The translations under genes were made by a program, and so were the position numbers. Positions 26,394 to 26,609 of a DNA stretch of 64,000 bases are shown in pieces; position 1 is the first letter of the stretch; each line of letters opens with the position of its first letter. The notes under the pieces are model-generated. The model was not told the DNA's origin. It did not search any database and saw nothing but the letters and a program-made list of their open reading frames with translations. The stretch lies in the NCBI RefSeq assembly GCF_003334405.1, contig NZ_QOWM01000001.1, one strand, 5' to 3'. The stretch comes from Escherichia coli. Lineage in GTDB: Bacteria; Pseudomonadota; Gammaproteobacteria; Enterobacterales; Enterobacteriaceae.

Positions 26394-26609
26394 ATGGAAC
26401 TGCATTGTCCACAATGTCAGCATGTGCTTGATCAGGATAACGGCCATGCGCGTTGCCGATCCTGCGGGGAATTTATTGAAATGAAAGCTCTTTGTCCAGA
26501 CTGCCATCAACCGTTGCAGGTGTTAAAAGCCTGTGGTGCAGTAGATTACTTCTGTCAGCACGGGCATGGCTTGATATCGAAAAAACGCGTTGAATTCGTG
26601 CTGGCTTAA
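26394..26609 (+). CDS. yfgJ: YfgJ (small zinc-ribbon-like protein)
   Basis: ORF 26358-26609 trimmed to ATG 26394 (71 aa, [12 protein letters not shown]); two CxxC pairs; ggagg RBS at 26383-26387. Confidence 0.9.

Follow-up and report, generated by a model that had tools for sequence, protein, structure and literature searches.

The convergent genes yfgJ and xseA of Escherichia coli, whose stop codons share four base pairs, very probably form an ordinary compact tail-to-tail junction at which read-through from either side is ended by Rho inside the partner gene, and which represents the empty state of an integration hotspot next to xseA. The overlap is already known and annotated, and such a junction is unexceptional. 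Direct observation or the literature supports four points: the stop codons overlap, a canonical intrinsic terminator is lacking, termination is bicyclomycin (BCM)-sensitive in both directions, and the content of the site varies. We further infer that DNA once lying between the genes was lost or replaced, deletion having trimmed up to the variable, apparently dispensable C-terminal tails of the two proteins. The locus offers a clean example of convergent genes without a spacer, where Rho clears read-through within the partner gene. In itself this matters little; what is new concerns how the junction evolved, and the comparative picture (an unoccupied pathogenicity-island hotspot, a sharp 1.8-kb peak of divergence and variable protein tails) adds modestly to existing knowledge of the locus.

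The junction and its two genes

The window analyzed here, that is, the whole 64-kb stretch of DNA, is the reverse complement of positions 2598208-2662207 of the E. coli K-12 MG1655 genome (NC_000913.3; window coordinate = 2662208 - MG1655 position). The two sequences differ at 10 single bases (8606, 18305, 19770, 22550, 24156, 26998, 30230, 35831, 41458 and 60195), none of them at the junction; the difference at 26998 turns XseA Ser327 of MG1655 and PDB 8TXR into Gly in the window. Bases 26600-26609 read GCTGGCTTAA, and the terminal TTAA is common to both TAA stops. The yfgJ gene ends in ...GTG CTG GCT TAA (stop at 26607-26609, plus strand), and xseA, read on the minus strand, in ...AAA AAG GTG CAT TAA (stop at 26608-26606). 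The sequence and the RefSeq annotation thus bear out the original prediction that the two stops overlap by 4 bp on opposite strands. The identical overlap is annotated in MG1655 (xseA 2634232..2635602, yfgJ 2635599..2635814) and also in ER1709, O157:H7 and one 95.5%-identical allele. It should be noted that chance is the wrong frame for judging a 4-bp overlap of annotated stops. Among the six convergent pairs of coding sequences in the window, only yfgJ and xseA overlap, the other five being spaced by 30-137 bp. The annotated yfgJ start at 26394 is preceded by GGAGG, whereas the start of the longest open reading frame would be at 26358.

Both genes are genuine protein-coding genes, since structures of their products have been solved: YfgJ by NMR (2JNE and 2JRP, the latter from Salmonella) and exonuclease VII in a structure (8TXR) that includes the full 456-residue XseA with its C-terminus ...KKVH. 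They are therefore two real genes of opposite strands which share their 3′ nucleotides, that is, a convergent overlapping pair. Were one of the stops not the true end of its gene, the overlap would be an artefact of annotation. We found nothing in favor of this reading, and the full-length sequences in the solved structures, the conservation of both frames up to their tails across Enterobacterales and the agreement of RefSeq annotation across strains leave it with a negligible probability.

Table 1 Features of the yfgJ-xseA region in the window and spacing of the two stops in other Enterobacterales (negative values denote overlap)
Feature	Genome or locus	Position or spacing	Strand	Basis
bamB	window	23556-24734	+	local gene order
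der	window	24852-26324	+	local gene order
Haplotype block of deep K-12 vs NC101 divergence, with the junction at its centre (3′ end of der, yfgJ, xseA)	window	26100-27900		identity bins
Untranslated 3′ extension of xseA RNA, running antisense across the whole of yfgJ, the spacer between der and yfgJ, and the final ~36 nt of der	window	26288-26605	-	Rho region peak ~26288
Perfect 13-bp hairpin GCCATTCCCTCTA-TGAATG-TAGAGGGAATGGC, no U tract on either strand	window	26346-26377		folding
yfgJ coding sequence, 71-aa double zinc-ribbon protein	window	26394-26609	+	RefSeq; PDB 2JNE; orthologues in 55 Enterobacterales loci
Weak imperfect dyad GAAAAAACGCG...CGCGATTTTTTT across the stops, non-canonical as a terminator	window	26579-26633		folding
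Shared TTAA of the two TAA stops	window	26606-26609		sequence and RefSeq annotation
xseA coding sequence, 456-aa exonuclease VII large subunit	window	26606-27976	-	RefSeq; PDB 8TXR full length
Untranslated 3′ extension of RNA made in the der/yfgJ direction, antisense to the 3′ end of xseA	window	26610-26730	+	composition; Rho region peak ~26698
guaB	window	28138-29604	+	local gene order
yfgJ-xseA stop spacing	K. pneumoniae ATCC 13883, L029 3703-3719	-17 bp		ORF extension
yfgJ-xseA stop spacing (CTAA)	Leminorella grimontii, L061 10225-10228	-4 bp		ORF extension
yfgJ-xseA stop spacing	Citrobacter spp.	+1 bp		
yfgJ-xseA stop spacing	Buttiauxella	+3 bp		
yfgJ-xseA stop spacing	Atlantibacter, Pluralibacter	+4 to +5 bp		
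yfgJ-xseA stop spacing	a Klebsiella MAG	+6 bp		
yfgJ-xseA stop spacing	two Enterobacter spp.	+13 bp		
yfgJ-xseA stop spacing, textbook bidirectional terminator AAAAAAGCCGCA-CTCAGA-TGCGGCTTTTTTT	L021	+33 bp		
yfgJ-xseA stop spacing	Yersinia	+43 to +110 bp		
yfgJ-xseA stop spacing	remaining loci with xseA located	0.4-6.6 kb		

Termination of the convergent transcripts

A consensus terminator scan of positions 24700-28300 yielded no canonical intrinsic terminator near the junction; its sole site was the bamB terminator at 24755-24784, which agrees with a published Term-seq 3′ end at MG1655 2637422. Promoter-like sites in the same scan were no more frequent than in shuffled sequence, and Rfam, searched at a permissive threshold over 24000-29000, returned zero matches and hence no known sRNA or cis-element at the junction. 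The curated Term-seq table of Adams et al. 2021 places no 3′ end of either strand at the junction (PMC7815308). With no spacer and no canonical intrinsic terminator nearby in the scan, the earlier statement that there is no room for a terminator between the genes also stands.

Instead, both transcripts appear to be terminated by Rho. Adams et al. 2021 (eLife, PMC7815308) performed DirectRNA-seq with and without BCM and reported Rho-termination regions in their Supplementary file 2. Two of these flank the junction, at positions that derive from 800-nt comparison windows, so that the end points are approximate and discrete 3′ ends are unmapped there. The region in the yfgJ direction, MG1655 2635510(-) or window ~26698(+), is antisense to xseA and ~89 nt beyond the yfgJ stop (reads upstream/downstream 110/17 without and 126/74 with BCM; Rho score 3.80, p 2.3e-6). 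The region in the xseA direction, MG1655 2635920(+) or window ~26288(-), is antisense to der and ~318 nt beyond the xseA stop (259/26 without and 472/533 with BCM; Rho score 11.25, p 2.6e-45), so that the 3′ extension of xseA crosses all of yfgJ in antisense. As coverage with BCM is equal downstream and upstream, the xseA direction contains no effective intrinsic terminator.

Read-through thus increases under BCM on both strands, and on both strands untranslated, C-rich and G-poor RNA lies between the stop and the termination zone. Positions 26650-26727 of the plus strand have a C content of 0.29 and a G content of 0.13 (C/G up to 2.3), and the first 100 nt past the xseA stop on the minus strand (26605-26508) have a C/G ratio of 1.4-1.7. 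We infer that Rho loads on these stretches after each stop. The course of events would then be as follows. Because no terminator DNA separates the stops, each RNA polymerase would run on into the partner gene; translation would end at the TAA, leaving untranslated, C-rich RNA onto which Rho could load to terminate transcription, roughly 90 nt inside xseA in the der/yfgJ direction and roughly 320 nt on, past all of yfgJ, in the xseA direction. Over ~410 nt the two transcripts would then be antisense to each other, a state that the cell tolerates and has no demonstrated use for.

That the transcripts enter each other's 3′ ends, as had been proposed from the stop codons, agrees with the Rho regions on both strands (PMC7815308) and with the listing of this pair among excludons (PMC12288877). 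The overlap is, however, larger than had been assumed, at roughly 410 nt with all of yfgJ included. Termination inside the partner gene, which the original prediction had set against its own reading, does occur (PMC7815308). As a whole, the earlier interpretation is partly supported.

An intrinsic mechanism embedded in the coding sequences has to be weighed against Rho. According to this alternative, the A6-CGCG...CGCG-A-T7 dyad at 26579-26633, whose second arm is also written CGCGAUUUUUUU (GAAAAAACGCG...CGCGAUUUUUUU), acts as a bidirectional intrinsic terminator that ends both transcripts near their stops. In its favor, the plus-strand fold (-15.6 kcal/mol, z -2.4) beats most shuffles (4/200 were as good), and the drop of coverage in the yfgJ direction is partly BCM-resistant (PMC7815308). 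The dyad is flanked by an A-tract and a T-tract, as are bidirectional intrinsic terminators, which consist of an A-tract, a GC hairpin and a U-tract. Unlike in such terminators, the hairpin of the window is weak and long-looped, with a G-C core of just 4 bp around an interior of ~32 nt; it was not picked up by the terminator scan, and its minus-strand fold reaches only -13.4 kcal/mol (z -1.7). The junction contains no short GC-rich hairpin that leads straight into a U tract in both directions, nor are discrete Rho-independent 3′ ends, since no Term-seq end maps to the dyad (PMC7815308) and read-through in the xseA direction is fully restored by BCM. Moreover, tight junctions of other genera contain no comparable conserved structure. 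The dyad is a by-product of the Lys and Arg codons in both tails (YfgJ SKKRVEF, XseA KKSRKK). Termination at the dyad is thus highly improbable, the termination at this junction being Rho-dependent. In the yfgJ direction, BCM restores downstream coverage only in part (74/126), and some Rho-independent loss may occur there, through the weak dyad, RNA decay or polymerase collision.

A second, stronger structure, the perfect hairpin at 26346-26377 (-27.9 and -23.9 kcal/mol, z about -4.9), is located in the 69-bp der-yfgJ spacer, within the 3′ extension of xseA and the 5′ region of yfgJ. It could be a hairpin that protects a 3′ end, a 3′ structure of der or a yfgJ leader.

Termination of this kind is not peculiar to yfgJ and xseA. 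Rho regions antisense to yfgD and pdeF, which are partners in two other convergent pairs of the window, are also listed (PMC7815308), and read-through ended by Rho is routine behavior at convergent pairs. The junction shares with Rho-terminated antisense read-through as described in the same study (PMC7815308) the BCM-sensitive regions past the stops on both strands and the C-rich untranslated RNA, and nothing notable sets it apart: it is the zero-spacer extreme of the same behavior. At the other end of xseA, Term-seq detected two ORF-internal 3′ ends at window ~27956 and ~27919 (-), corresponding to MG1655 2634252 and 2634289 (+) (PMC7815308). They follow a CAATTTTTA run, only ~21 and ~58 nt inside the xseA reading frame, and may reflect premature termination or attenuation.

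Antisense overlap and the question of regulation

The overlap of the yfgJ and xseA transcripts is real and already documented. The pair is one of 165 convergent overlapping-transcript pairs in Table 1 of ExcludonFinder (NAR 2025, PMC12288877), for which transcripts have to overlap in half or more of 58 MG1655 RNA-seq data sets. By the literature (PMC12288877, PMC7815308), the two neighbors thus have the overlapping transcripts that characterize an excludon. As in convergent excludons in general, these are neighbors of opposite strands with overlapping transcripts, and this exact pair is listed (PMC12288877); here the coding sequences overlap as well. However, excludons of the regulatory type display mutually exclusive expression and RNase III processing, whereas yfgJ and xseA are listed for their transcript overlap.

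In a functional convergent excludon, the extensions of xseA and yfgJ would each lower expression of the partner, either by transcriptional interference or via cleavage by RNase III, and the levels of YfgJ and ExoVII would be inversely coupled to an extent set by Rho. The recurrence of the overlap in at least 50% of the 58 RNA-seq data sets (PMC12288877), the coverage of all of yfgJ by xseA read-through (PMC7815308) and the tight spacing of the two genes in several genera are in line with such coupling. On the other hand, the accessible parts of the literature searched report neither anticorrelated expression nor dsRNA at the junction; in the part of the p19 dsRNA-capture table that was available, the xseA duplex is at U00096.2 2632425, in the 5′ part of the gene, and none is at the junction (PMC7373196). 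Both genes are lowly expressed, as judged by read counts (PMC7815308). Nor is the arrangement intact in 31% of E. coli, in Salmonella or in many further genera; indeed, as ~31% of E. coli genomes and many genera separate yfgJ and xseA by 0.4-12 kb, the overlap is dispensable, and the variable spacing and inserts at the junction argue against a conserved regulatory role. A regulatory excludon role for this pair is possible but unsupported, and we regard it as improbable compared with read-through that is simply ended by Rho.

Variable content of the site between yfgJ and xseA

The K-12 junction is the empty state of a known xseA integration hotspot. Of 5,426 complete E. coli genomes, 3,668 (~68%, referred to as K-12-type) matched a 601-nt junction query over its full length, whereas about 1,330 matched only its xseA part, at 82-89% identity. 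An island-type left junction was found in 1,689 of the 5,426 genomes (~31%), including the type strain and Nissle 1917. In the genomes where only the xseA part matched, for example NC101 (phylogroup B2), an 11.7-kb block encoding SinH (an intimin-like inverse autotransporter), SinI and an adhesin with an 8-kb gene separates yfgJ from xseA. Consistently, the literature describes a genomic region "xseA..yfgJ" in ExPEC (PMC12928451), IatB/SinH in 37 of 39 B2 genomes (PMC6714894), the Salmonella CS54 island in the order xse-shdA-ratB-ratA-sinI-sinH-yfgK (PMC10048834) and an "xseA integration hotspot" shared with Photorhabdus and Xenorhabdus (PMC3091717); reports on this hotspot also cover an island of CFT073. 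Conserved flanks with inserts that vary among strains and species, the hallmark of an island hotspot, are thus found at the xseA site. The CS54 island (xseA-shdA-ratB-ratA-sinI-sinH-yfgJ/yfgK) and the ExPEC sinH/iatB island have the same flanking genes as the window, but in the window there is no island and the flanks abut and overlap.

Strains carrying the island do possess a structured 3′ spacer next to xseA, which is convergent with the adhesin gene: in NC101 (L002 3360-3427), a REP-like palindrome GCCGGATGCG...CTTATCCGG with a folding energy of -40 kcal/mol fills the 68-bp adhesin/xseA spacer. In strain E06, a urinary isolate (L066 3064-4392), an IS5-family (ISKpn26) insertion or deletion has left yfgJ without its C-terminus and sinH without its N-terminus, and yfgJ is dispensable in E06 because this event truncates it.

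The two junction types of E. coli belong to deeply diverged haplotypes. Identity between K-12 and NC101 (L005) is 87%, 68%, 85% and ~91% in successive 300-bp bins within 26100-27900 and 97-99% outside this block, with a peak divergence of 32% in 26401-26700. Homology stops one base past the yfgJ stop and restarts at the XseA codons KSRKK, so that the XseA tails differ (...KKSRKKVH* in K-12 vs ...KSRKKTSNP* in NC101). Although these break points by themselves fit a simple deletion of the B2 island as the origin of the K-12 junction, the 30-50% nucleotide divergence beside it is too high for a recent in-situ deletion. In the final ~170 nt of xseA, the E. coli types are as far apart (70% and 51%) as either is from other genera. 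The N-terminal zinc ribbon of YfgJ evolves fast throughout the Enterobacterales sampled, and that of K-12 is an outlier with 23-45% identity to any other sampled allele, whereas the island-linked YfgJ allele is 61-77% identical to those of Salmonella, E. whittamii, Escherichia sp. E1V33 and a Citrobacter. This sequence comparison suggests, tentatively as to polarity (ancestral vs derived K-12 state), that the island-linked haplotype was inherited vertically in Escherichia and that the K-12 haplotype is derived or imported.

A more specific scenario can be formulated only tentatively, and we consider it rather unlikely: the 4-bp overlap of ~68% of E. coli would be the scar of the loss of an ancestral sinH-sinI-ratA island through an imported, island-free der3′-yfgJ-xseA3′ haplotype of roughly genus-level divergence, an event which would have removed all terminators and given rise to a lineage-specific, Rho-limited antisense pair with the xseA 3′UTR extending over the whole of yfgJ. 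If true, commensal-type and ExPEC-type E. coli would differ in how yfgJ expression is wired. The contrast between K-12-type strains, with a 4-bp overlap, and B2 strains, with the genes 11.7 kb apart, is a possible natural experiment which could probe the regulatory cost or use of convergent transcript overlap.

Beyond E. coli, species-representative genomes were scanned with YfgJ, which yielded 55 Enterobacterales loci. Nearly all of them contain der and yfgJ, followed by convergent xseA and guaB, with a highly variable distance between the yfgJ and xseA stops (Table 1) and with tails of both proteins that vary beyond KKRVEF in YfgJ and KKxRxRKK in XseA. Tight abutment is the usual unoccupied state of the site, and repeated loss of intervening DNA would be its simplest cause. 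We also considered tight spacing as a sign of selection for antisense coupling and rejected this as the main reading, the same site bearing inserts in many lineages. The overlaps of K. pneumoniae and Leminorella, computed by ORF extension, are candidate independent convergent overlaps.

The inserts include a recurrent cassette of ~1.45 kb between yfgJ and xseA, which carries the gene of a 341-aa M4 thermolysin-type metalloprotease (HEXXH) together with a 114-116-aa ORF that has no match in NCBIfam. It is found in three Enterobacterales families (loci L014, L024, L034, L036, L042, L052, L007, L031 and L037), in Trabulsiella, Kosakonia, K. grimontii, Siccibacter, Enterobacter, Leclercia, Prodigiosinella, Erwinia and Pantoea. 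Erwiniaceae additionally carry an ORF for an ~810-aa membrane dehydrogenase-like protein at this site, and in Leclercia, Pseudescherichia and ESNIH1 a 380-aa MFS transporter is encoded there. In Shimwellia pseudoproteus (L027 7670-7812), the xseA frame apparently extends 143 nt into yfgJ, which may be a true long overlap or may result from a frameshift or an assembly error.
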